Source of the DNA: Escherichia phage PhiV-1
Strand: one strand, 5' to 3'
Sequence record: MT542512
Length of the DNA: 39,461 nt
Shown: positions 424 through 39,381 of the stretch, in pieces
Numbering within the stretch: the stretch's first letter is position 1
Layout: every line of letters starts with the position of its first letter
The notes under the pieces: generated by a model
What the model was told of the DNA's origin: nothing
The model's input: only the letters and a program-made list of their open reading frames with translations
The model's database searches: none
Translations under genes and position numbers: made by a program

Positions 424-446
424 TAATGCGACTCACTAATGGGATA
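424..446 (+). promoter_or_regulatory. Phage RNAP promoter (phiOL position)
   Basis: TAATGCGACTCACTAATGGGATA. Confidence 0.6.
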
Positions 447-530: not shown

Positions 531-561
531 TTGACTCTAAGAAACAGCTATGGTTTAATAG
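531..561 (+). promoter_or_regulatory. sigma70-type early promoter (A1-like)
   Basis: TTGACT 531-536, about 17-nt spacer, TTTAAT/TAATAG -10 candidates 554-561; cttaaag repeats just upstream as around T7 A1. Confidence 0.45.
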
Positions 562-666
562 CTACCAGTTGAGAGACACAACGCCACCAACTACTAGACA
601 AGACCACGAGTTATCTAGTAAGGCTGAAGGGTCTCAAGTAGTCATCAACCAGACATACGAAAGTGG

Positions 667-695
667 TTGACTCAACGAAAGCAATAACGTAGTAT
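667..695 (+). promoter_or_regulatory. sigma70-type early promoter (A2-like)
   Basis: TTGACT 667-672, 17-nt spacer, TAGTAT 690-695. Confidence 0.5.
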
Positions 696-762
696 AGCAG
701 TCGTCAACAACTGGTCGCCCTCTGAAACAACATGAGGTGTCACGGTGAGAAACAAAAAGTAG

Positions 763-792
763 TTGACAAGTAGTAACGATAAGATGTAAGAT
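763..792 (+). promoter_or_regulatory. sigma70-type early promoter (A3-like)
   Basis: TTGACA 763-768, 18-nt spacer, TAAGAT 787-792; same -35/-10 hexamers as T7 A3 as recalled. Confidence 0.55.
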
Positions 793-888
793 GTACGACA
801 TAACGTTCTCGTGAAGTCCCACACTGAAAGGGACTCGGTGCTAACAAACCTGCACTTAAAGCTCTTTAACAATTTGGATAACGATAAG

Positions 889-953
889 CACTCTTGAGAT
901 GACGACAACAGCGATTAACTCAAGGTGACTCGAAAGAGAAGCCTTTATGATAA
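889..953 (+). promoter_or_regulatory. RNase III-type processing hairpin (R0.3 position)
   Basis: cttgag/ctcaag imperfect stem with G-U pairs followed by cctttatgata; resembles T7 R0.3 as recalled. Confidence 0.4.
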
Positions 954-980
954 TCACTGCAACCACATAAGGTAATCATC

Positions 981-1436
981 ATGATTCACACTAAAGAGCA
1001 AGCTAACGTTTTCTATGTACTGGTAAGCGCATTCCGTTCTAACCTGCACCACTTGGATAACATTAGCCGTCATCGTCGCTTAGTTAACAGCTTACGCAAT
1101 GCACCTCTGGAATACGGTAGCGTTGAGTCTACTGATTTAACTGGCTGTTATCATGAGGCTGGCATGGAGTCACCCTCTGAAGAGCAAACCATCCGAGTAC
1201 GCTGCACGACCAAGGCGCAAGCTATAAGTGTCGCACGGTTGGCTTGTAACGACTATGAGCAAGACTGTGTACTGGTCTATAAGTCACAGACTCACAGCGC
1301 TGCACTAATCTTTGCTGGTGGCTTGGACGGTTGGAAGACTGAGCGTATCGGGTCGTTCCAGATGGTCGCACCTGAAGTTGAACTGACAGGCAACTACACG
1401 GTCGATGAGTTCGGACGTGGCTGGAAGGTAATCTAA
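981..1436 (+). CDS. 0.3: S-adenosylmethionine lyase/hydrolase (T3-type gene 0.3 anti-restriction protein)
   Basis: 151 aa; closely matches recalled T3 SAMase (M..TKE.ANVFYVLVSAFRSNL...YGSVESTDLTGCY...VRC..KAQA..VARLACN..EQDCVLVYKSQTH); RBS aagg upstream. Confidence 0.8.
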   Translation: MIHTKEQANVFYVLVSAFRSNLHHLDNISRHRRLVNSLRNAPLEYGSVESTDLTGCYHEAGMESPSEEQTIRVRCTTKAQAISVARLACNDYEQDCVLVYKSQTHSAALIFAGGLDGWKTERIGSFQMVAPEVELTGNYTVDEFGRGWKVI

Positions 1437-1636
1437 TGGTCATGGCACTCTTTGTAATCACGATGTACGCTCTGATTGGGGCGTACTTCCTAAGAGACTT
1501 CCGCAAGGGTCTCAAGGTACACAAGGCTAACTTCTCGCACTTGAAGTATGGCTTTCTACCACGATTCACAGTCCGTGAACGTAACGGGCGCTTTAAGGCT
1601 AACAAGGTTGGTATCTTCTATGTTGCAACGCACTGA
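1436..1636 (+). CDS. Hypothetical small early membrane protein
   Basis: 66 aa, hydrophobic N-terminus (FVITMYALIGAYFL); start overlaps 0.3 stop. Confidence 0.4.
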   Translation: MVMALFVITMYALIGAYFLRDFRKGLKVHKANFSHLKYGFLPRFTVRERNGRFKANKVGIFYVATH

Positions 1637-1804: not shown

Positions 1805-2908
1805 ATGAACTACACCGACATTCAGGCACGTCTGGCAATCATCAAGTCACTCCCGATTAGCGAACTGGACAAGCGCCAGCCTCTTCTGGTTGCACTGGCT
1901 GCTGACATCGTGAATGGTGAGACAAGCGATGGCAACGACACAGACGGGTCGCAGGGTCTTGAGTATCAGGACTGGTGGCACACCTTGGGTGCACTCATGC
2001 GTGATGCAGGTTTCCGCATGCTGGGTAATGGTCACTTCAGTGCGGCCTACTCGCACGAAATGTTACCGGGTCGAGTCATCAAGGTTGGCTTTAAGAAAGA
2101 GGATTCAGGCGCTGCATACACTGCATTCTGTAGGATGCACCAAGGCCGTGCTGGTATCCCTAACGTCTATCACGTAGCACGTCATGCAGGTTGCTATACG
2201 GTCGTACTGGACCGCTTAAAAAGCTGTGACCGCTACGCTAACGATGTTCACGCAAAGTATGCAAGCGCTGCGCAGGAGTTCATTGAGTGCTCTGGAGGTG
2301 ATGCCGATTGGTACGCACAGTATGTTAGCAAGGAGTTCATTGAGACGTGCAAGATGATTCGTGAGTTCTTCCACGGTATTGCATCTTTCGACATGCACAG
2401 TGGGAACATTATGTTCGATGACAACGATGTCCCGTACATCACTGACCCGGTTAGTTTCTCACATGACCGTGAACGTGAGGATGGTTTCCCTCTGGACCCT
2501 GATGCGTTGATTGCCGAGGTCGAGGCGATAGCTAACGAGCGCATCATTGAACGGTGCCGCAACCGCAAGGCCAAATGTGACCCTAACGGAACCTTTCAGG
2601 TTAACCGCAAGGCCGCAATGAAACGCCGTAAGCGCAACCGCAAGTTACGTGCTAAACATGCAGCGGAAGGAATGCACCAGTTTGTCAAAGAGCGCCTTAA
2701 GCGTAAAGCTATTGACCGAAATGAACGCCGTGCTGAGATGCTCATGGGGTCTGCATGGCATTACGCATGGTTGCATAATGGTAACTCAACGTTCCGCAAG
2801 GTTGAACAAGTGAACGGCCTCAAGTGGCAACTAGGGGACCGCCTAGCAATCCAAGCGGGTCTACCTCTGAACATTGACAAGTTACTTGACGCACAACTGC
2901 AAGGCTGA
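1805..2908 (+). CDS. 0.7: Ser/Thr protein kinase / host shut-off protein
   Basis: 367 aa; strong match to recalled T7 gp0.7 (LGNGHFSAAYSH..RVIKVGFKKEDSGAAYTAFCRM..GIPNVY..HAGCYTVVLD, FDMHSGNIMF, VPYITDPVSFS). Confidence 0.9.
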   Translation: MNYTDIQARLAIIKSLPISELDKRQPLLVALAADIVNGETSDGNDTDGSQGLEYQDWWHTLGALMRDAGFRMLGNGHFSAAYSHEMLPGRVIKVGFKKEDSGAAYTAFCRMHQGRAGIPNVYHVARHAGCYTVVLDRLKSCDRYANDVHAKYASAAQEFIECSGGDADWYAQYVSKEFIETCKMIREFFHGIASFDMHSGNIMFDDNDVPYITDPVSFSHDREREDGFPLDPDALIAEVEAIANERIIERCRNRKAKCDPNGTFQVNRKAAMKRRKRNRKLRAKHAAEGMHQFVKERLKRKAIDRNERRAEMLMGSAWHYAWLHNGNSTFRKVEQVNGLKWQLGDRLAIQAGLPLNIDKLLDAQLQG

Positions 2909-2981: not shown

Positions 2982-5633
2982 ATGACTAACGTAATCAACG
3001 CACCAAAGAACGACTTCTCTGACATCGCTAACGCAATCCAGCCGTACAACATTCTGGCTGACCATTACGGCGCACAGCTTGCAGCTACGCAGTTACAGCT
3101 TGAGCACGAAGCACACACCGAGGGCGAGAAGCGTTTTCTTAAGGCAATGGAACGTCAAATCAAAGCGGGTGAGTTCGGTGATAACGCAGTGGCTAAACCG
3201 CTCCTGTCATCTCTCGCACCGAAGTTCATCGAGGCGTGGAACACTTGGTTCACCGAGGTGGAAGCGAAGCGTGGCAAGCGTCCAGTAGCCTACAATCTGG
3301 TACAGAAGGTTGCACCTGAAGCGGCCGCTTTCATCACACTGAAGGTCACACTCGCTTGCTTGACGAAAGAAGAGTTCACCAACCTGCAATCGGTCGCCAC
3401 TAAGATTGGTCGCAGTATTGAGGATGAACTGCGTTTTGGTCGCATCCGTGACGAAGAAGCGAAGCACTTTAAGAACCACGTACAGGAGGCACTGAACAAG
3501 CGCGTTGGTATCGTCTACAAGAAAGCATTCATGCAAGCCGTAGAAGGCAAGATGTTAGACGCTGGTCAACTGCAAACCAAGTGGACTACATGGACACCTG
3601 AAGAATCAATTCACGTTGGTGTGCGCATGTTGGAACTGCTCATCGGGTCTACTGGTCTCGTTGAGTTACACCGACCGTTTGCTGGTAACGTTGAGAAGGA
3701 TGGCGAGTACATCCAGTTAACAGAACAATATGTAGACCTGCTATCCAAACGTGCTGGCGCACTGGCTGCAATCGCTCCGATGTATCAGCCTTGCGTGGTC
3801 CCTCCGAAGCCTTGGACTTCTCCGGTTGGTGGTGGCTATTGGGCTGCTGGTCGCAAGCCTCTCTCTCTGGTTCGCACTGGTAGCAAGAAGGGACTTGAGC
3901 GTTACAACGATGTGTATATGCCTGAAGTCTACAAGGCGGTGAACATCGCACAGAATACTCCTTGGAAGATTAACAAGAAGGTTCTGGCAGTGGTCAACGA
4001 GATTGTGAACTGGAAGCATTGCCCGGTTGAAGATGTTCCTGCTCTGGAACGTGGTGAACTGCCTGTCAAACCTGATGACATTGACACCAACGAGGCATCG
4101 CTCAAAGCGTGGAAGAAAGCGGCCTCCGCAATCTACCGCAAAGAGAAGGCACGAGTGTCTCGTCGTATGAGCATGGAGTTCATGTTAGGTCAGGCCAATA
4201 AGTTCGCACAGTTTAAAGCTATCTGGTTCCCGATGAACATGGACTGGCGCGGCCGAGTGTATGCGGTCCCAATGTTTAACCCGCAAGGCAACGACATGAC
4301 CAAAGGCTTGCTGACGCTCGCTAAAGGTAAACCAATCGGTGTCGATGGGTACTACTGGCTGAAGATTCACGGTGCTAACACTGCTGGTGTGGACAAGGTG
4401 GACTTCGCTGAACGCATCAAGTTCATTGATGACAACCACGAGAACATCATGAGCGTTGCGGCTGACCCGATTGCTAACACTTGGTGGGCTGAACAAGACT
4501 CTCCGTTCTGCTTCCTCGCGTTCTGCTTTGAGTATGCGGGAGTCCAGCATCACGGGATGAACTACAACTGCTCTTTACCGCTGGCGTTCGATGGCTCTTG
4601 CTCTGGTATTCAGCACTTCTCCGCAATGCTCCGCGATGAGGTCGGTGGTCGTGCGGTTAACCTGCTTCCAAGCAAAGAGGTACAAGACATCTACCGCATC
4701 GTTGCTGAACGTGTGAACGAGATTATGCAACAGGACGTAATCAACGGAACTGATAACGAAGTGGAAACTGTTATCAACAAGGACACTGGAGAAATCACTG
4801 AGAAGCTCAAGCTGGGTACGAAGGAACTGGCGGGTCAATGGTTGGCCTACGGTGTGACTCGCAAGGTCACTAAGCGTTCGGTCATGACGTTGGCTTACGG
4901 CTCCAAAGAGTATGGCTTCCGTGACCAAGTTCTTGAGGACACAATTCAGCCAGCTATCGACGATGGCAAGGGCTTGATGTTCACTCAACCGAACCAAGCG
5001 GCTGGCTACATGGCTAAACTGATTTGGAATGCTGTAACGGTCACAGTTGTCGCAGCGGTTGAAGCGATGAACTGGTTGAAGTCTGCTGCTAAACTTCTGG
5101 CTGCTGAAGTCAAGGACAAGAAGACCAAAGAGGTTCTCCGCAAGCGTTGCGCAGTACATTGGGTAACTCCTGATGGCTTCCCTGTGTGGCAGGAATACAA
5201 GAAGCCAGTACAGACCCGCTTGAATCTGATGTTCTTAGGCCAGATTCGTCTACAGCCTACCGTGAACACCAACAAGGATAGCGGGATTGATGCTCGTAAA
5301 CAGGAGTCAGGCATCGCACCTAACTTTGTCCACTCAATGGATGGAAGCCACCTGCGCATGACCGTGGTTCGCTCCAATGAGGTCTACGGTGTGGAATCGT
5401 TCGCACTGATTCACGACTCCTTTGGTACTATCCCTGCTGATGCTGGCAACCTGTTTAAAGCAGTGCGTGAAACGATGGTCAACACTTACGAAGAGAACGA
5501 TGTACTTGCAGACTTCTATGAGCAATTTGCTGACCAGTTGCACGAATCACAGCTTGACAAGATGCCTGAGATGCCAGCTAAAGGTTCTCTGGACCTGCAA
5601 GAAATCCTTAAGTCAGACTTTGCGTTTGCCTAA
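2982..5633 (+). CDS. 1: Single-subunit DNA-dependent RNA polymerase
   Basis: 883 aa; co-linear with T7 RNAP as recalled; motifs LAFDGSCSGIQH and HDSFGT; specificity loop R746/N748/R756/Q758 identical to T7. Confidence 0.98.
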   Translation: MTNVINAPKNDFSDIANAIQPYNILADHYGAQLAATQLQLEHEAHTEGEKRFLKAMERQIKAGEFGDNAVAKPLLSSLAPKFIEAWNTWFTEVEAKRGKRPVAYNLVQKVAPEAAAFITLKVTLACLTKEEFTNLQSVATKIGRSIEDELRFGRIRDEEAKHFKNHVQEALNKRVGIVYKKAFMQAVEGKMLDAGQLQTKWTTWTPEESIHVGVRMLELLIGSTGLVELHRPFAGNVEKDGEYIQLTEQYVDLLSKRAGALAAIAPMYQPCVVPPKPWTSPVGGGYWAAGRKPLSLVRTGSKKGLERYNDVYMPEVYKAVNIAQNTPWKINKKVLAVVNEIVNWKHCPVEDVPALERGELPVKPDDIDTNEASLKAWKKAASAIYRKEKARVSRRMSMEFMLGQANKFAQFKAIWFPMNMDWRGRVYAVPMFNPQGNDMTKGLLTLAKGKPIGVDGYYWLKIHGANTAGVDKVDFAERIKFIDDNHENIMSVAADPIANTWWAEQDSPFCFLAFCFEYAGVQHHGMNYNCSLPLAFDGSCSGIQHFSAMLRDEVGGRAVNLLPSKEVQDIYRIVAERVNEIMQQDVINGTDNEVETVINKDTGEITEKLKLGTKELAGQWLAYGVTRKVTKRSVMTLAYGSKEYGFRDQVLEDTIQPAIDDGKGLMFTQPNQAAGYMAKLIWNAVTVTVVAAVEAMNWLKSAAKLLAAEVKDKKTKEVLRKRCAVHWVTPDGFPVWQEYKKPVQTRLNLMFLGQIRLQPTVNTNKDSGIDARKQESGIAPNFVHSMDGSHLRMTVVRSNEVYGVESFALIHDSFGTIPADAGNLFKAVRETMVNTYEENDVLADFYEQFADQLHESQLDKMPEMPAKGSLDLQEILKSDFAFA

Positions 5634-5640
5634 CGGAATC

Positions 5641-5663
5641 TAATACGACTCACTAGTGGGAGA
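5641..5663 (+). promoter_or_regulatory. Phage RNAP promoter (phi1.1A position)
   Basis: TAATACGACTCACTAGTGGGAGA followed by AT-rich ctttaag x3 region. Confidence 0.7.
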
Positions 5664-5723
5664 CCCTTGGGGTTTCCCTACTTTAAGATAACTTTAAGTT
5701 TAACTTTAAGAGGAAACATAATC

Positions 5724-6281
5724 ATGTTTACTTTCATCACTTCAGTAGGCGCTCTCGTATCAACAATTCTTGCAGCAACATACTATAATCGTTCAAAGGT
5801 ATTTCTCACTAAGCTAATCAAAGAAGAGAAGAACTCTCATGCACTCAAAGAGAGACTTGAAGATGGATGGCGAGAGAAGCAGGAACTAGCTGGTCGAATC
5901 CGTACCTTAGAGTTCGAACAACAATACGACATGTCGAACCAACGAGAACTCATTGAGCGTCTACGCGCTGAGGCAGTGGAGTACCGCAAGGAACTTAAAG
6001 AGGCAAAGAGTACCATCCGTGAGTACACTCACAGTGACATCACGTCTATCAAGTTTACCGCTCACATCCCGGATGCTGGGTGGAAGCGCACTGAGTTCAA
6101 GCTGGGTATAGGGTCTTGTGGCAAAGAGGTTACATGTTTGCACTGGAAAGAACAGTCGGACCGCTATCTGCTGACACAGACGTGCACTGACGGTGAGCGC
6201 AAAGAGTTCACCTATTATAAGAAAGATGTAGCTGGTCGCATTGAGATTGCACGTAAGGTTGCAGACAATACGACTCACTAA
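5724..6281 (+). CDS. Hypothetical membrane-anchored coiled-coil protein (T3 gene 1.05 position)
   Basis: 185 aa from ATG 5724 with RBS gagga and tttaactttaag enhancer; the track ORF start at 5667 lies inside the promoter; N-terminal TM helix, central coiled coil, Cys-containing C-terminus. Confidence 0.6.
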   Translation: MFTFITSVGALVSTILAATYYNRSKVFLTKLIKEEKNSHALKERLEDGWREKQELAGRIRTLEFEQQYDMSNQRELIERLRAEAVEYRKELKEAKSTIREYTHSDITSIKFTAHIPDAGWKRTEFKLGIGSCGKEVTCLHWKEQSDRYLLTQTCTDGERKEFTYYKKDVAGRIEIARKVADNTTH

Positions 6282-6288
6282 TGGGAAA
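6266..6288 (+). promoter_or_regulatory. Phage RNAP promoter (phi1.1B position)
   Basis: CAATACGACTCACTAATGGGAAA; overlaps stop codon of upstream ORF. Confidence 0.7.
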
Positions 6289-6522: not shown

Positions 6523-6794
6523 TGGGTCGCTTATATAGTGGTAACTTAATGGCGTTAAAGGATGTCATCGAGAGACTTAAAGAAGACCACGATGTCAGTG
6601 TTGTAACTGAGACTTTCCGCTATGAGAACTACGCACAGCGCCGATGGGTCTCCGGTGAGACTCTCCGCATTGTTCTACGCAATGGCCTCGTACTGACATC
6701 CAAGTGTTTCGAACAGTCAGACGAAGATGTCCGGTGCAATGCACAGACTGAGTGGCTCCGCAAGGTACACGCAGACCTGAAGCACTGGAAGTAA
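6522..6794 (+). CDS. 1.2: Inhibitor of host dGTP triphosphohydrolase
   Basis: 90 aa; MGRLYSGNL... N-terminus and DEDV...W...DLKHWK C-terminus as in T7 gp1.2. Confidence 0.8.
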   Translation: MGRLYSGNLMALKDVIERLKEDHDVSVVTETFRYENYAQRRWVSGETLRIVLRNGLVLTSKCFEQSDEDVRCNAQTEWLRKVHADLKHWK

Positions 6795-6814
6795 TACGAC
6801 TCACTAATGCGAAA
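6792..6814 (+). promoter_or_regulatory. Phage RNAP promoter (phi1.3 position)
   Basis: TAATACGACTCACTAATGCGAAA (C at +2). Confidence 0.6.
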
Positions 6815-7940: not shown

Positions 7941-7975
7941 GGTCAGTCCTTAGCGGGGCTGGCCTTTTGCGTTTC
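7941..7975 (+). terminator. Intrinsic terminator for host RNAP (TE position)
   Basis: ggtcagtcc-ttagc-ggggctggcc hairpin followed by ttttgcgtttc, immediately after ligase as in T7. Confidence 0.5.
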
Positions 7976-7997
7976 TATACGACTCACTATGGAGGAA
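7975..7997 (+). promoter_or_regulatory. Phage RNAP promoter, variant (phi1.5 position)
   Basis: CTATACGACTCACTATGGAGGAA. Confidence 0.5.
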
Positions 7998-8862: not shown

Positions 8863-9054
8863 ATGAGCACTCTGAATAAAGGGTCACTCGTAAACGGTGA
8901 CAAGAAGTTCTTCGCAACGGTCGAAGGCCAAGGCCAATCGTTCGAAGTCCCTGTGTTCGCTGCGTCTCTTGAAGAGGCAAACGAGTTAGCTGAATGGCAG
9001 TATGTTCCGGCTGGCTTCGCAGTGACACGCATCCGTCCAGACCGAAAGGTTTAA
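8863..9054 (+). CDS. 2: Inhibitor of host RNA polymerase
   Basis: 63 aa; FEVP...[18 protein letters not shown] matches T7 gp2 as recalled. Confidence 0.85.
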
Positions 9055-9074
9055 TAGGACTCACTATTGGGAGA
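9052..9074 (+). promoter_or_regulatory. Phage RNAP promoter (phi2.5 position)
   Basis: TAATAGGACTCACTATTGGGAGA. Confidence 0.65.
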
Positions 9075-10723: not shown

Positions 10724-10813
10724 ATGATGATTATTCATGAGATGGGAATGTACGATATGATTTACCGCTGTGTATTCGTTCTGGCATTGACCTATATCTT
10801 AACTCGTAAGTAA
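10724..10813 (+). CDS. Tiny ORF (29 aa)
   Basis: MMIIHEMGMYDMIYRCVFVLALTYILTRK; below track threshold. Confidence 0.2.
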   Translation: MMIIHEMGMYDMIYRCVFVLALTYILTRK

Positions 10814-10833
10814 TAGAACTCACTATGGGAGGA
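10811..10833 (+). promoter_or_regulatory. Phage RNAP promoter, variant (phi3.8/4c position)
   Basis: TAATAGAACTCACTATGGGAGGA. Confidence 0.5.
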
Positions 10834-12695: not shown

Positions 12696-12718
12696 CAATA
12701 GAACTCACTAATGGGACA
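12696..12718 (+). promoter_or_regulatory. Phage RNAP promoter (phi4.3 position)
   Basis: CAATAGAACTCACTAATGGGACA. Confidence 0.6.
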
Positions 12719-13528: not shown

Positions 13529-13551
13529 CTATTCAACTCACTAATGGGAGA
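13529..13551 (+). promoter_or_regulatory. Phage RNAP promoter (phi4.7 position), degenerate upstream half
   Basis: CTATTCAACTCACTAATGGGAGA. Confidence 0.5.
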
Positions 13552-18023: not shown

Positions 18024-18046
18024 CAATACGACTCACTATGGGAGAG
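18024..18046 (+). promoter_or_regulatory. Phage RNAP promoter (phi6.5 position)
   Basis: CAATACGACTCACTATGGGAGAG. Confidence 0.65.
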
Positions 18047-18975: not shown

Positions 18976-20583
18976 ATGGCAAGCTCACAGAAACGTGAAG
19001 GCTTCGCGGAGAATGGTGCCAAGGCGGTGTATGACGCATTGAAGAACGACCGGAACTCCTACGAGACCCGTGCGGAAAACTGTGCGAAGTACACCATCCC
19101 TTCGTTGTTCCCTAAAGACTCCGACAACGCCTCTACTGACTACACCACTCCGTGGCAAGCAGTTGGCGCTCGTGGCTTGAACAACTTGGCCTCTAAGCTC
19201 ATGCTCGCTCTGTTCCCTATGCAGACTTGGATGAAGCTGACCATCTCTGAGTTCGAAGCGAAACAATTGGTTGCACAGCCAGCCGAACTAGCGAAGGTCG
19301 AAGAAGGTCTCTCAATGGTCGAGCGAATCTTGATGAACTACATCGAGTCCAACTCGTACCGTGTGACACTCTTTGAGACCCTCAAGCAGTTGGTCGTTGC
19401 AGGTAACGCTCTGCTCTACATTCCTGAACCTGAAGGTGCTTACAATCCCATGAAGCTATACCGCCTGTCTTCTTATGTTGTCCAACGAGACGCATTCGGC
19501 ACGGTGCTACAGATTGTAACCTTAGATAAGACTGCCTATGCAGCACTTCCAGAAGACGTGCGAAACGCTATGGACTCCGGTCAGGAACATAAAGGCGACG
19601 AAATGATTGATGTGTACACTCACATTTATCTTGACGAAGAATCAGGAGAATACCTCAAGTACGAAGAGATTGATGGTGTTGAAGTCGATGGTACAGATGC
19701 TTCTTATCCGGTGGACGCTTGTCCTTATATCCCGGTTCGCATGGTACGCATTGATGGAGAATCATATGGTCGTTCTTACTGTGAGGAATACTTAGGTGAC
19801 TTACGGTCCCTTGAGAACCTTCAGGAAGCTATCGTTAAGATGTCAATGATTAGTGCAAAAGTTATCGGCTTGGTTAACCCGGCTGGTATCACACAGGTTC
19901 GTCGTTTGACCAAAGCACAGACAGGTGACTTCGTGTCCGGTCGTCCAGAAGACATCTCGTTCCTTCAGCTTGAAAAGGCCGCTGACTTCTCTGTAGCGAA
20001 AGCTGTGAGTGAACAGATTGAGGGCCGACTGTCCTATGCCTTTATGCTGAACTCCGCTGTGCAACGTACTGGTGAGCGTGTGACTGCTGAAGAGATTCGA
20101 TATGTCGCATCTGAACTCGAAGATACCCTTGGTGGTGTCTATTCGATTCTCTCACAGGAACTTCAGTTGCCAATGGTTCGTGTCCTGCTGAAGCAACTTC
20201 AAGCAACCAATCAGATTCCTGAGTTACCGAAAGAGGCCGTTGAGCCTACTATCAGTACCGGGATGGAAGCATTGGGTCGTGGTCAAGACCTCGATAAGCT
20301 GGAACGTTGTATTGCTGCGTGGTCTGCGCTGGCTCCTATGCAGAATGATCCTGACATCAACATTGCGACCATTAAGTTGCGCATTGCGAACGCTATCGGC
20401 ATCGACACTTCTGGTATCCTCAAGACACCTGAAGAGAAACAACAGGAGATGGCTGAGGCTGCTCAAGGCACTGCTCTGGAGAACGCTGCTGCGTCTGCTG
20501 GTGCTGGTGCTGGTGCACTGGCTACTGCAAGTCCTGAGAACATGGAAGCTGCGGCTGCACAGGCTGGTATGGTTCCTAATTAA
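18976..20583 (+). CDS. 8: Portal (head-tail connector) protein
   Basis: 535 aa; strong match to recalled T7 gp8. Confidence 0.97.
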   Translation: MASSQKREGFAENGAKAVYDALKNDRNSYETRAENCAKYTIPSLFPKDSDNASTDYTTPWQAVGARGLNNLASKLMLALFPMQTWMKLTISEFEAKQLVAQPAELAKVEEGLSMVERILMNYIESNSYRVTLFETLKQLVVAGNALLYIPEPEGAYNPMKLYRLSSYVVQRDAFGTVLQIVTLDKTAYAALPEDVRNAMDSGQEHKGDEMIDVYTHIYLDEESGEYLKYEEIDGVEVDGTDASYPVDACPYIPVRMVRIDGESYGRSYCEEYLGDLRSLENLQEAIVKMSMISAKVIGLVNPAGITQVRRLTKAQTGDFVSGRPEDISFLQLEKAADFSVAKAVSEQIEGRLSYAFMLNSAVQRTGERVTAEEIRYVASELEDTLGGVYSILSQELQLPMVRVLLKQLQATNQIPELPKEAVEPTISTGMEALGRGQDLDKLERCIAAWSALAPMQNDPDINIATIKLRIANAIGIDTSGILKTPEEKQQEMAEAAQGTALENAAASAGAGAGALATASPENMEAAAAQAGMVPN

Positions 20584-20603
20584 TACGACTCACTAATGGG
20601 AGA
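20581..20603 (+). promoter_or_regulatory. Phage RNAP promoter (phi9), perfect local consensus
   Basis: TAATACGACTCACTAATGGGAGA; overlaps gene 8 stop; transcript 5' end can fold gggagagacactacgtcctccc. Confidence 0.75.
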
Positions 20604-21574: not shown

Positions 21575-21597
21575 TAATACGACTCACTATTGGGAGA
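21575..21597 (+). promoter_or_regulatory. Phage RNAP promoter (phi10)
   Basis: TAATACGACTCACTATTGGGAGA; 5' hairpin gggagagacattacgttctccc. Confidence 0.75.
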
Positions 21598-22940: not shown

Positions 22941-22963
22941 CTAATAGACTCACTAATGGGAGG
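22941..22963 (+). promoter_or_regulatory. Phage RNAP promoter, variant (phi11 position)
   Basis: CTAATAGACTCACTAATGGGAGG. Confidence 0.5.
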
Positions 22964-25993: not shown

Positions 25994-26016
25994 CAATACG
26001 ACTCACTATTGGGAAG
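25994..26016 (+). promoter_or_regulatory. Phage RNAP promoter (phi13)
   Basis: CAATACGACTCACTATTGGGAAG. Confidence 0.7.
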
Positions 26017-33333: not shown

Positions 33334-33356
33334 CAATACGACTCACTAATGGGAAG
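33334..33356 (+). promoter_or_regulatory. Phage RNAP promoter (phi17)
   Basis: CAATACGACTCACTAATGGGAAG; 5' hairpin gggaaggctcacacagcttccc. Confidence 0.7.
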
Positions 33357-33403: not shown

Positions 33404-35371
33404 ATGGCTAACAAGATTCGTACTGTGATGACTTACCCACTTAATGGTGCCGTGAACTTCACGATTACCTTTGAGTATCTGGCACGTAAGTTCATCCAAG
33501 TGACACTCATTGGTAAAGACCGTAAAGAACTGGTTCTCAATCAGGACTACCGTTTTACCAGTAAGACTCAAATTACTACTACCCGTGCGTGGACTGCTGC
33601 TGATGGCTACCAGATGATTGAGATTCGTCGATTCACTTCGGCTACTGACCGTCTGGTTGACTTTGCCGATGGCTCAATCCTCCGTGCGTATGACCTGAAC
33701 ATCTCGCAGATTCAAACACTGCATGTTGCCGAAGAAGCACGAGACCTCACTGCGGATACCATTGGTGTCAACAATGATGGTCACTTAGATGCTCGTGGTC
33801 GTAAGATTGTTAACTTGGCGTATGCCACAAGTGACTATGATGCCGTTCCTTTAAAGCAGGTTAAAGAGCGTGAATCCTCTGCATGGAATGCTGTGACAAA
33901 AGCTAACGAACACGCTGACAGGGCCAATAAGGAAGCAAACCGTTCTCGTGATGAGGCCAACCGTGCCCAACGTGAAGCTGACCGCTCAACGCAACAGGCA
34001 GGTGTCTCTACACAACAAGCAGTTGAGGCCAAGAAGCAAGCTGACCGTTCTAACTCTGAGGCTAACCGAGCTAAAGGTTATGCTGATAGTATGACCGCAA
34101 GTGTCGCTGAGGCCAAGAAGCAAGCTGACCGTTCCACCTCTGAGGCCAATCGTGCCCGTGATGAGGCCAATCGTGCTGCCGGAGAAGTGACTAAAGCTGC
34201 TGCTGAGGTTGCCAAGGCTGCTGCACACGTTGAGACCGCTAAGAGTCACGCCAATCGTGCTAACACTGAGGCAGAACGCTCTAAGAGTGAAGCCGACCGT
34301 GCTAAAACCGAGGCTGACAAGCTGGGTAATATGAATGAATTAGCTGAGGCCATCGACAGGGTTGATGCTCCTGATGTTTACTTCAAGAGGAATGTTATAG
34401 CCGGACACAAATTGGAGACTTCTGGAGGCTCGCATCTTCACCCTAATGAGATTAAATTGGTTAACAATAAATCTCCAGACCAGCACTTCATTGTACAAGC
34501 GTGGGGAACTGGAGACCCTAATAATAGGTCGCAGGTGTTTGAGTTAAAGGATAACTTGGGTCCGTACGCATTCTATATCCAGCGCCAGAAGAAGACAGAC
34601 CAAACTTGGCAAATGAGTGTGAACGGTACTGTTAGCTGCGTATCCATCGAGGCTGGCAAGGGTTTCATCTCTAAGGACAGTACAGGCTCCATTCAGATGA
34701 AGACTTGGGGGGGTGGTTGGAACCAATGGACTTCTAATGCTGTTCCAGACATTCAGCACGATATTGAGGCCCAACATGATGCTGCTTATCTTCTGGAGAG
34801 GGCTACCATTTGGGGTAAGGAGCATTTATACGCAAAACAACTGTACAATAATGGCACTGGCGCAAACTTCTTTATTCGCCACTACCTACGAGGCTCTTAC
34901 TTCGACTTCCGCTCTGATGGTACTCTTATCAGTTCCACCGGATGGAATATCCCGGCAGATGGAAACCTGTACATCAAGAAATATGGACTATATATTGATG
35001 CGTGGGTTAACAAGCGCTTGGGCGAACACGCCTACAACAAGAGCGAGACAAACAACCTAGTGAATGGTCGATTGACACAAGCGCAAGCTGATGGTCGCTA
35101 CATTCGCAAGAACGCTGGTTGGGCTGAGGTCTGGAGCGGCTCTGCTGGTGGTGGTGTTTCCGTAGGTCTCTCACAGGATGTTCGTTGGAGAACCATCTGG
35201 ATTCAAACTCAAGGCAGATGGAACCCTGTTCAGATTGGTGATAATGGTGCTTACTACATCTCGTCTAATGGTGGGTGGTTGAAGTTCACCATCTCTAATA
35301 ACGGTAGGACGTTCCGTAACGATGAGGACAGGACTTCTGTTCCTACGAGAATCTTGATTCAAAACCAATAA
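33404..35371 (+). CDS. 17: Tail fibre protein
   Basis: 655 aa; N-terminal about 150 aa and C-terminal tip (AWTQVWSGSAGGGVSV..SQD.R.R.IWI...SNG..F.N..D.RSVP) match T7 gp17; central coiled-coil longer than in T7 (553 aa). Confidence 0.95.
   Translation: MANKIRTVMTYPLNGAVNFTITFEYLARKFIQVTLIGKDRKELVLNQDYRFTSKTQITTTRAWTAADGYQMIEIRRFTSATDRLVDFADGSILRAYDLNISQIQTLHVAEEARDLTADTIGVNNDGHLDARGRKIVNLAYATSDYDAVPLKQVKERESSAWNAVTKANEHADRANKEANRSRDEANRAQREADRSTQQAGVSTQQAVEAKKQADRSNSEANRAKGYADSMTASVAEAKKQADRSTSEANRARDEANRAAGEVTKAAAEVAKAAAHVETAKSHANRANTEAERSKSEADRAKTEADKLGNMNELAEAIDRVDAPDVYFKRNVIAGHKLETSGGSHLHPNEIKLVNNKSPDQHFIVQAWGTGDPNNRSQVFELKDNLGPYAFYIQRQKKTDQTWQMSVNGTVSCVSIEAGKGFISKDSTGSIQMKTWGGGWNQWTSNAVPDIQHDIEAQHDAAYLLERATIWGKEHLYAKQLYNNGTGANFFIRHYLRGSYFDFRSDGTLISSTGWNIPADGNLYIKKYGLYIDAWVNKRLGEHAYNKSETNNLVNGRLTQAQADGRYIRKNAGWAEVWSGSAGGGVSVGLSQDVRWRTIWIQTQGRWNPVQIGDNGAYYISSNGGWLKFTISNNGRTFRNDEDRTSVPTRILIQNQ
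33948..34175 (+). repeat. Internal direct repeats within tail-fibre shaft coding region
   Basis: 26-bp exact repeat gaggccaagaagcaagctgaccgttc at 34025-34050 and 34109-34134; cgtgatgaggccaa(c/t)cgtgc at 33948 and 34157. Confidence 0.65.
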
Positions 35372-36424: not shown

Positions 36425-36982
36425 ATGGCTACTACAAACTCAAGAACCCGCACACTCTGGACCATCAATGGTCGCTCACCGGACAGCCGGGATATGTACG
36501 ACCGAAACAATGTTGGCCTTCGTGTTGGGCGCATCGACATCCCAGCGTCAGAAATGGTCAAGGTAGATGGCTACGACAAGGTTGAATACGTGGTGCAACT
36601 GAGTGATGGCACAACCGAGCAACATGCTACGTTTGAGACCTTGATGTCCACTTGGGGTGGCTCCGTAGAGTCTAAACCGGGTAGTGGGTTCATGACGGTA
36701 TTTCTGAATGAGCAAAGCACTGAGCGGCTCGGTATGGTTCGAATCGACGTATACAAAGAGTGGACTGGTGCTGACCCTGAGCCGGAAGGTGGTGTGGCTT
36801 CATTAGTTAGTGCAACGCTTTCTGCGTCTGATAGTGCATTTGGTACACAGTTCGTGGATAGCGAAGGGAAGAGCGCTTCCGTTATGTTCCAACCTAGTAA
36901 CATCGACGGGGCTGTATCTAAGACCGACACTATCAAGGCTCTTGAGAAGCGCATCGCTGCCTTAGAGAAATCTGCCGAGTAA
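36425..36982 (+). CDS. Hypothetical protein, unassigned; no T7/T3 counterpart recalled at this locus
   Basis: 185 aa; strong RBS gaaggagaaataatATG; acidic S/T/G-rich with C-terminal amphipathic tail TIKALEKRIAALEKSAE. Confidence 0.6.
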   Translation: MATTNSRTRTLWTINGRSPDSRDMYDRNNVGLRVGRIDIPASEMVKVDGYDKVEYVVQLSDGTTEQHATFETLMSTWGGSVESKPGSGFMTVFLNEQSTERLGMVRIDVYKEWTGADPEPEGGVASLVSATLSASDSAFGTQFVDSEGKSASVMFQPSNIDGAVSKTDTIKALEKRIAALEKSAE

Positions 36983-38845: not shown

Positions 38846-38868
38846 TAATACGACTCACTATTGGGAAG
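38846..38868 (+). promoter_or_regulatory. Phage RNAP promoter (phiOR position)
   Basis: TAATACGACTCACTATTGGGAAG followed by cttaaag repeats. Confidence 0.7.
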
Positions 38869-39348: not shown

Positions 39349-39381
39349 CCTTATGATAGCCACTCTGTGGTGAACCTTATG
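39349..39381. repeat. Right-end CCTTATG repeat copies
   Basis: ccttatga at 39349 and 39375, same heptamer as left-end array. Confidence 0.45.

Follow-up and report, generated by a model that had tools for sequence, protein, structure and literature searches.

Gene 0.3 of Escherichia phage PhiV-1 encodes a protein that, as judged from profile, structure and alignment matches, is a real and apparently intact member of the T3-type SAM lyase family. The gene occupies positions 981..1436 of the + strand in the 39,461-nucleotide sequence analysed here (record MT542512, referred to as the window), and its product is 151 aa long. Taken together, the analyses presented below make it very likely that the enzyme acts by depleting SAM, that the T7-like promoter specificity of the phage is a trait of its whole genus, that the 0.3 allele is the lineage's own, and that the more T3-like allele of BA14 and similar phages arose by a later exchange.

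The gene begins with an ATG, and a putative ribosome-binding site, TAAGGT (968..973, + strand), can be read from the sequence 7 nt upstream. The product matches the Pfam family S-AdoMet_lyase (PF23780) over profile positions 1-132 of 133, with 136.3 bits (E 7.8e-40; curated family cut-off, 28 bits), and also matches PHROG 2226. Its sole match among solved structures is the T3 SAM lyase (7OCK/8BB1; E 1.9e-61, residues 1-150 aligned to 1-151). Identity to T3 gp0.3 is about 66.9-68% (66.9% by blastp), and full-length identity of 67% to the solved T3 structure settles the predicted fold. A blastp comparison with the 117-aa T7 Ocr gave no match at E<=10, and an identity as Ocr was rejected on this basis. 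A sequence-only reading of the window had assigned gene 0.3 to the T3 SAMase rather than to Ocr and had proposed alignment to both proteins as a check; the alignments agree with that assignment. GenBank lists the protein (QLF85750.1) as a 'hypothetical protein', and UniRef names it 'S-adenosyl-L-methionine hydrolase'. A minus-strand ORF overlapping the gene (1222-1605) was treated as spurious because all other genes and promoters found are on the + strand.

T3 gp0.3 and the PhiV-1 protein belong to the same family and length class (152 and 151 aa, respectively) and share the position of first early gene, but about one third of their residues differ. The SAM-binding and catalytic positions of the T3 enzyme, G55, Y57, E67, E68, Q94 and D95, are kept in PhiV-1 with the same numbering. 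Among the residues that contact MetK, T4, N9, Q103, T104 and H105 are retained (5 of 5), and two further positions at this interface are changed (F3H and T106S). The PhiV-1 protein has a one-residue deletion after R122. It also has no methionine at the in-frame internal start of T3 (M28, which is I28 here), and a shorter second product is therefore probably absent.

Based on nucleotide similarity, PhiV-1 is a member of the genus Berlinvirus (Studiervirinae), a genus other than that of T3. Two blocks of the window (the first 6 kb and positions 6001-31000) match Berlinviruses at 92-94% nucleotide identity over 96-100% of their length, and the relatives matched by both blocks include CarlSpitteler, ErnstBeyeler, SPLA4, 285P, Kvp1 and BA14. 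Most of the Berlinviruses checked carry a SAM lyase at the 0.3 position. The combination of SAM lyase and T7-like promoters is the normal state of the genus and was already known; the Kvp1 paper (2008) described T3-like gp0.3, 0.6 and 0.7 alongside Berlin-like promoters. The BASEL study reported a SAM hydrolase at 0.3 in all tested Studiervirinae outside Teseptimavirus and found those phages largely insensitive to type I restriction. Across the phage collection, 502 records contain a SAM lyase homologue and 572 an Ocr homologue; each family is scattered over the genera of Studiervirinae, with both kinds present in Kayfunavirus and in the Klebsiella przondoviruses. The type species of Berlinvirus, Yersinia phage Berlin, encodes neither protein at this position (978-1208); its slot is occupied by a lone 76-aa ORF that includes a hydrophobic stretch, and the kinase gene comes immediately after it.

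Within Berlinvirus, gp0.3 falls into two classes that are only about 68% identical to one another, although the RNA polymerases (RNAPs) of the genus are 97-100% identical. The PhiV-1-type protein was found in 12 records at 92.7-98% identity to PhiV-1 (SPLA4, 98%; ErnstBeyeler, 97%; PYPS50, 96.7%; PcCB251 and LPST144, 94% each) and is 66-67% identical to T3 gp0.3, as measured for SPLA4, ErnstBeyeler and PcCB251. The other class, found in BA14, Kvp1, 285P, CarlSpitteler and many others, is 67.5-69% identical to PhiV-1. By amino acid identity, the PhiV-1 allele is further from T3 than the BA14-type allele is. The four named phages of the BA14 class share genus, locus and an identical stretch of 22 N-terminal residues with PhiV-1, but the body of their gene is a T3-like cassette, 89-90% identical to T3 at the amino acid level (measured for BA14, Kvp1 and CarlSpitteler) and only 68% identical to PhiV-1.

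The segment that differs between the classes corresponds to codons 23-151 of the PhiV-1 gene (1046..1436, + strand). A four-way alignment placed its left boundary at 1045/1046, between codons 22 and 23, and showed that it ends on the right at the stop codon of gene 0.3. Nucleotide identity of PhiV-1 to CarlSpitteler, BA14 and Kvp1 is 54-80% at about 1001-1440 and 90-100% on either side. The right-hand conserved flank is the gene 0.6 homologue (1436..1636, + strand; 66 aa; PHROG 2385, E 3.6e-29), whose start overlaps the 0.3 stop and which is 98-100% identical to BA14 at the nucleotide level.

To this alignment we can add counts of quartet-informative sites for PhiV-1, BA14, T3 and pEa_SNUABM_57 (hereafter pEa57), a basal Berlinvirus whose RNAP is 90% identical to that of PhiV-1. 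At 881-1045, eight sites group PhiV-1 with BA14, one groups PhiV-1 with pEa57 and BA14 with T3, and two group PhiV-1 with T3. The corresponding counts are 9, 54 and 6 at 1046-1436, and 26, 1 and 1 at 1437-1636, such that the switch in topology is confined to 1046-1436. Neighbor-joining (NJ) trees of gp0.3 likewise unite the PhiV-1 type with pEa57 (98% bootstrap) and the BA14 type with T3, AP5 and 2050H2 (100%). Both the 0.3 allele and the RNAP of PhiV-1 group with pEa57.

Comparison of divergence in gene 0.3 and in the RNAP gene (gene 1) indicates which allele is out of step. BA14 and T3 are 90% identical in gp0.3 and 76% identical in RNAP, with dS of 1.4 in the 0.3 body and 2.2 in gene 1, and dN of 0.09 and 0.21, respectively. 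Gene 0.3 is thus much less diverged than the RNAP in this pair, making the BA14-type allele the discordant one. PhiV-1 and pEa57 are 76% identical in gp0.3 and 90% in RNAP (dS 1.15 in the 0.3 body and 0.89 in gene 1), and dS between PhiV-1 and T3 is 2.3 in the 0.3 body and 1.8 in gene 1; both PhiV-1 pairs fit an accessory gene that evolves faster than the RNAP but has descended with it. We consider it probable that PhiV-1 keeps its own SAM lyase and that, in the BA14 group, homologous recombination brought in a Teetrevirus-like cassette in place of codons 23-152. We place this direction of transfer at probable, and no higher, because it is drawn from NJ trees of few taxa (15-16) and from relative distances, with dS values above 1 close to saturation. 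The allele of PhiV-1 would be the lineage's own because it has diverged in step with the RNAP, and the T3-like gene of BA14, Kvp1 and CarlSpitteler would have been acquired in a subsequent exchange with Teetrevirus-like phages, in which the conserved first 22 codons of 0.3 and gene 0.6 may have served as homology arms.

The two alleles are scattered relative to the RNAP subclades, and both therefore circulate within the genus. For example, SPLA4, with the PhiV-1-type gene, groups with CarlSpitteler and Kvp1, with the BA14-type gene, in the gp1 tree (78%). A broader but unlikely reading is that the locus is a long-lived polymorphism of at least three deeply diverged SAM lyase alleles (the PhiV-1 type, the T3-like BA14 type and the pEa57 type) plus the SAMase-less state of Berlin, maintained by functional differences and exchanged through homologous recombination, with the conserved first 66 nt on one side and gene 0.6 on the other. 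If this were true, the alleles may differ in their fit to the MetK of their hosts or in their escape from defences that sense a particular SAM lyase. Slightly less likely again, in our judgment, is that the PhiV-1-type allele was imported into the Berlinviruses of E. coli and Salmonella from a pEa57-like lineage of Erwinia or Pectobacterium phages, such that both alleles are mobile cassettes and neither is native. The scatter just described would be consistent with import, as would the identical breakpoints of the two alleles and the presence of the PhiV-1-type allele in PcCB251, a phage from Pectobacterium. However, the divergence between PhiV-1 and pEa57 is as deep in gene 0.3 as in gene 1, or deeper, and the pair therefore lacks the excess similarity seen between BA14 and T3.

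The exact core CGACTCACT occurs 11 times in the window, always on the + strand, against an expectation of 0.54 and a maximum of two in 100 shuffled sequences. A relaxed core identifies 16 promoter-like 23-mers, all on the + strand, with the consensus TAATACGACTCACTAWTGGGAGA. This consensus equals that of T7 throughout -17 to -3 but not at -2/-1, where AT or TT replaces the TA of T7. CGACT is present at -12 to -8 in 11 of the 16 sites, and the other five have GGACT, GAACT (twice), CAACT and AGACT. No T3-type promoter was found within three mismatches anywhere in the PhiV-1 sequence.

The leftmost of these sites is a phiOL-like promoter (TAATGCGACTCACTAATGGGATA, 424..446) at the site where phiOL is annotated in BA14. 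It is followed by phi1.05 (TAATACGACTCACTAGTGGGAGA, 5641..5663), phi1.1 (CAATACGACTCACTAATGGGAAA, 6266..6288; identical to the annotated phi1.1 of BA14 and Kvp1) and phi1.3 (TAATACGACTCACTAATGCGAAA, 6792..6814). Further promoters lie at 9052..9074 (TAATAGGACTCACTATTGGGAGA, with the variant core GGACT), 18024..18046 (CAATACGACTCACTATGGGAGAG), 20581..20603 (TAATACGACTCACTAATGGGAGA), 21575..21597 (TAATACGACTCACTATTGGGAGA, one mismatch to the T7 consensus), 25994..26016 (CAATACGACTCACTATTGGGAAG) and 33334..33356 (CAATACGACTCACTAATGGGAAG), and a phiOR-like promoter is found at 38846..38868 (TAATACGACTCACTATTGGGAAG). The remaining sites are classed as promoter-like: 7975..7997 (CTATACGACTCACTATGGAGGAA), 10811..10833 (TAATAGAACTCACTATGGGAGGA, variant core GAACT), 12696..12718 (CAATAGAACTCACTAATGGGACA), 13529..13551 (CTATTCAACTCACTAATGGGAGA) and 22941..22963 (CTAATAGACTCACTAATGGGAGG). 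The depositor-annotated promoters of BA14 and Kvp1 are almost identical to those of PhiV-1.

Gene 1 (2982..5633, + strand; PF00940 and PF14700) encodes a single-subunit RNAP of 883 aa. Its specificity loop (residues 739-770, encoded at 5196..5291 on the + strand) carries R746, N748, R756 and Q758, as well as T745, L749 and M750, all as in T7; T3 has K, D, M and I at the positions that differ from the T7-state loop. R746, N748, R756 and Q758 make hydrogen bonds to promoter bases, and grafting the T3-type residues 745K/748D/749M/750I switches recognition from CGACT to ACCCT (PMC11880802). Based on the loop residues and the promoter cores, the PhiV-1 RNAP is predicted to have T7-state specificity, and cross-recognition with T7 may occur despite the difference at -2/-1. 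A literature search for experimental work on the promoter specificity of the BA14 or other Berlinvirus RNAPs returned nothing relevant. N748, R756 and Q758 are identical in nine of nine Berlinviruses examined, whatever sits at 0.3, and are also present in the more distant phage P15 (Unyawovirus). Thus, the T7 state is probably ancestral and the T3 state derived, and the T7-like specificity would be a genus-wide trait separate from gene 0.3.

The sequence-only reading was correct in recognizing both a T7-type promoter core and T7-type specificity residues in the RNAP. It went further, however, in proposing that the early region is a mosaic, with a T3 SAMase gene gained by a T7-type phage, and this we regard as highly improbable and already contradicted, even though gp0.3 does belong to the T3 family and the T7 state is seen in both the promoters and the specificity loop. 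The PhiV-1 RNAP is 76.3% identical to that of T7 and about 75-76% identical to that of T3 (74.9% by direct comparison), while T3 and T7 share 82.1% identity, and PhiV-1 therefore belongs to a third lineage and does not have a T7 backbone. Consistent with this, the gp1 NJ tree joins T7 to the T3 clade (93% bootstrap) and places all Berlinviruses in one clade (100%), with PhiV-1 in an outgroup position to T7 and T3. Both traits are common to the whole genus. Moreover, the PhiV-1 protein shares only 67% identity with T3 gp0.3 and groups with pEa57 as its RNAP does, and the dS between PhiV-1 and T3 is not lower in gene 0.3 than in gene 1. The truly T3-like allele sits in the genus-mates BA14, Kvp1 and CarlSpitteler, not in PhiV-1. 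The comparison of gene 0.3 and gene 1 phylogenies that had been suggested as a check thus divides the claim: there is a mosaic signal at the locus, but it points to BA14-type phages, and the PhiV-1 allele tracks its RNAP.

Gene 0.3 lies in the position of a first early gene, 3' of candidate host promoters and a hairpin resembling an RNase III site, all on the + strand. Three candidate sigma-70 promoters were identified: TTGACT...TTTAAT at 531..568, which aligns to the annotated host promoter of BA14 at 460-496; TTGACT-17-TAGTAT at 667..703, found by consensus scan and identical to the BA14 promoter at 595-631; and TTGACA-18-TAAGAT at 763..797, which scored 10 of 12 in the consensus scan and aligns to BA14 685-722. 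The fourth annotated host promoter of BA14 (834-870) has no counterpart in PhiV-1 from about 797 on, so that three of the four are kept. The hairpin (909..959; AACTCAAGG...GCCTTTATGAT) aligns with the T3 stretch annotated as R0.3 (822-875), and its predicted RNA fold of -16.4 kcal/mol (z = -2.0) is weak by itself. We propose these promoters and an RNase III site on the basis of their alignment with annotated sequences in related phages, together with this weak fold. Gene 0.3 would be the first PhiV-1 gene to enter the cell, where host RNA polymerase probably transcribes it from the three early promoters at about 531-797 into a transcript that probably bears the RNase III hairpin just upstream of the gene.

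The T3 enzyme is a lyase that produces MTA and homoserine lactone (PMC7877911), and the roles of its residues are known from mutagenesis and cryo-EM. Either E68Q or Q94A alone lowers its activity about fivefold, and combining the two abolishes it. Through its N-terminal tail and beta4-beta5 loop it also binds MetK, which inhibits SAM synthesis. T3 circumvents type I restriction by SAM cleavage, and both SAM cleavage and MetK binding contribute to its escape from BREX. By homology, the PhiV-1 protein would cleave SAM to methylthioadenosine and homoserine lactone and would also bind the host SAM synthase MetK. The resulting depletion of SAM would inactivate type I restriction-modification, BREX and other defences that depend on SAM ahead of entry of the remaining genome. 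Anti-restriction by SAM depletion, which the earlier reading had put forward, is the likely function of the PhiV-1 protein because it keeps most of the catalytic and MetK-contact residues that have been tested in T3.

It is very unlikely that the protein is no longer a lyase and works solely by binding MetK, or that it plays no part in anti-restriction. A catalytically dead T3 mutant does keep partial anti-BREX activity via MetK binding, and GenBank labels the PhiV-1 protein as hypothetical, but the ORF is full length and retains every residue at which mutation reduces the activity of the T3 enzyme (E68, Q94 and D95), and dN/dS between the two Berlinvirus alleles is well below 1. The least probable of the readings, that these alleles diverged in place by fast diversifying selection and without recombination, appeals to the often rapid evolution of anti-defence genes and to a high dN between the alleles (0.31), but was rejected on dS and quartet site counts: synonymous divergence between PhiV-1 and BA14 is 4-10 times higher in the 0.3 body (1.14) than in the flanks (0.12-0.31; gene 1, 0.31; gene 0.6, 0.12), which rules out fast protein evolution in place, the boundaries are abrupt, and derived sites in the BA14 body are shared with T3 (85) more often than with PhiV-1 (38).

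Two other kinds of protein invite comparison with the PhiV-1 lyase. T7 Ocr occupies the same genomic slot and has a broadly similar role in overcoming type I restriction and BREX, but is a DNA mimic rather than an enzyme and has no sequence similarity to PhiV-1 gp0.3. The environmental SAM lyases Svi3-3 and Orf1 (eLife 2021) catalyze the same reaction and share a few SAM-binding residues (equivalents of the Gly, Tyr, Glu and Gln), but are trimeric, have no MetK-binding residues and show barely detectable similarity to the T3 family.

Several features elsewhere in the genome were recorded. The early gene 0.7 (1805..2908, + strand) encodes a Ser/Thr protein kinase (PHROG 2828, E 1.5e-182) and is another recombining or fast-evolving early gene. 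In two patches (2201-2400 and 2601-2900) it is 45-75% identical to some genus-mates, and between PhiV-1 and BA14 it has dS of 0.72 and dN of 0.18, compared with 0.31 and 0.009 for gene 1; the kinase of ErnstBeyeler is annotated as shorter. An ORF at 1548-1784 resembles 0.65 (PHROG 10380, no Pfam match) and falls within a second mosaic patch, 1601-1800, which is 86-99% identical to CarlSpitteler, ErnstBeyeler and SPLA4 and only 30-69% identical to BA14 and Kvp1. The gene 1.05 ORF (5667-6281) encodes 204 aa from a TTG start, with the T3 1.05 domain (PF25755) only at residues 125-195 and an N-terminal part that is coiled-coil-like in appearance; its BA14 homologue is annotated as a fusion protein. 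Between the spanin and large terminase genes, positions 36425-36982 contain a 185-aa ORF (PHROG 20446, no Pfam match), where CarlSpitteler has an annotated 185-aa hypothetical protein and ErnstBeyeler has no gene.

The tail fibre gene (33404-35371) contains five diverged 65-nt repeats at 33902-34302, spaced in every case at multiples of 21 nt, which fits heptad (coiled-coil) repeats in the fibre shaft. The heptamer CCTTATG occurs 16 times in the window, against 3.3 expected, with seven copies near the left end (78-283) and two near the right (39349-39381); these copies look like a counterpart of the end-proximal short repeat arrays of T7. A search for a terminal direct repeat did not reveal a second copy within the PhiV-1 sequence, which starts about 22 nt inside the left ends of BA14 and Kvp1.

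The main value of these results is for annotation, given that GenBank leaves gene 0.3 of PhiV-1 unnamed, and we attach little importance to them beyond that. The contrast between the T3-like cassette of BA14-type phages and the allele of PhiV-1 offers a clean, small example of the exchange of an anti-defence cassette, in keeping with typical phage mosaicism. PhiV-1 has been widely used as a 'T7-like' test phage in studies of bacterial defence systems. At the anti-restriction locus, however, it is unlike T7 and encodes a predicted SAM lyase instead of Ocr, a difference that bears on SAM-dependent defences (type I restriction-modification and BREX) and on systems triggered by Ocr, such as PARIS.
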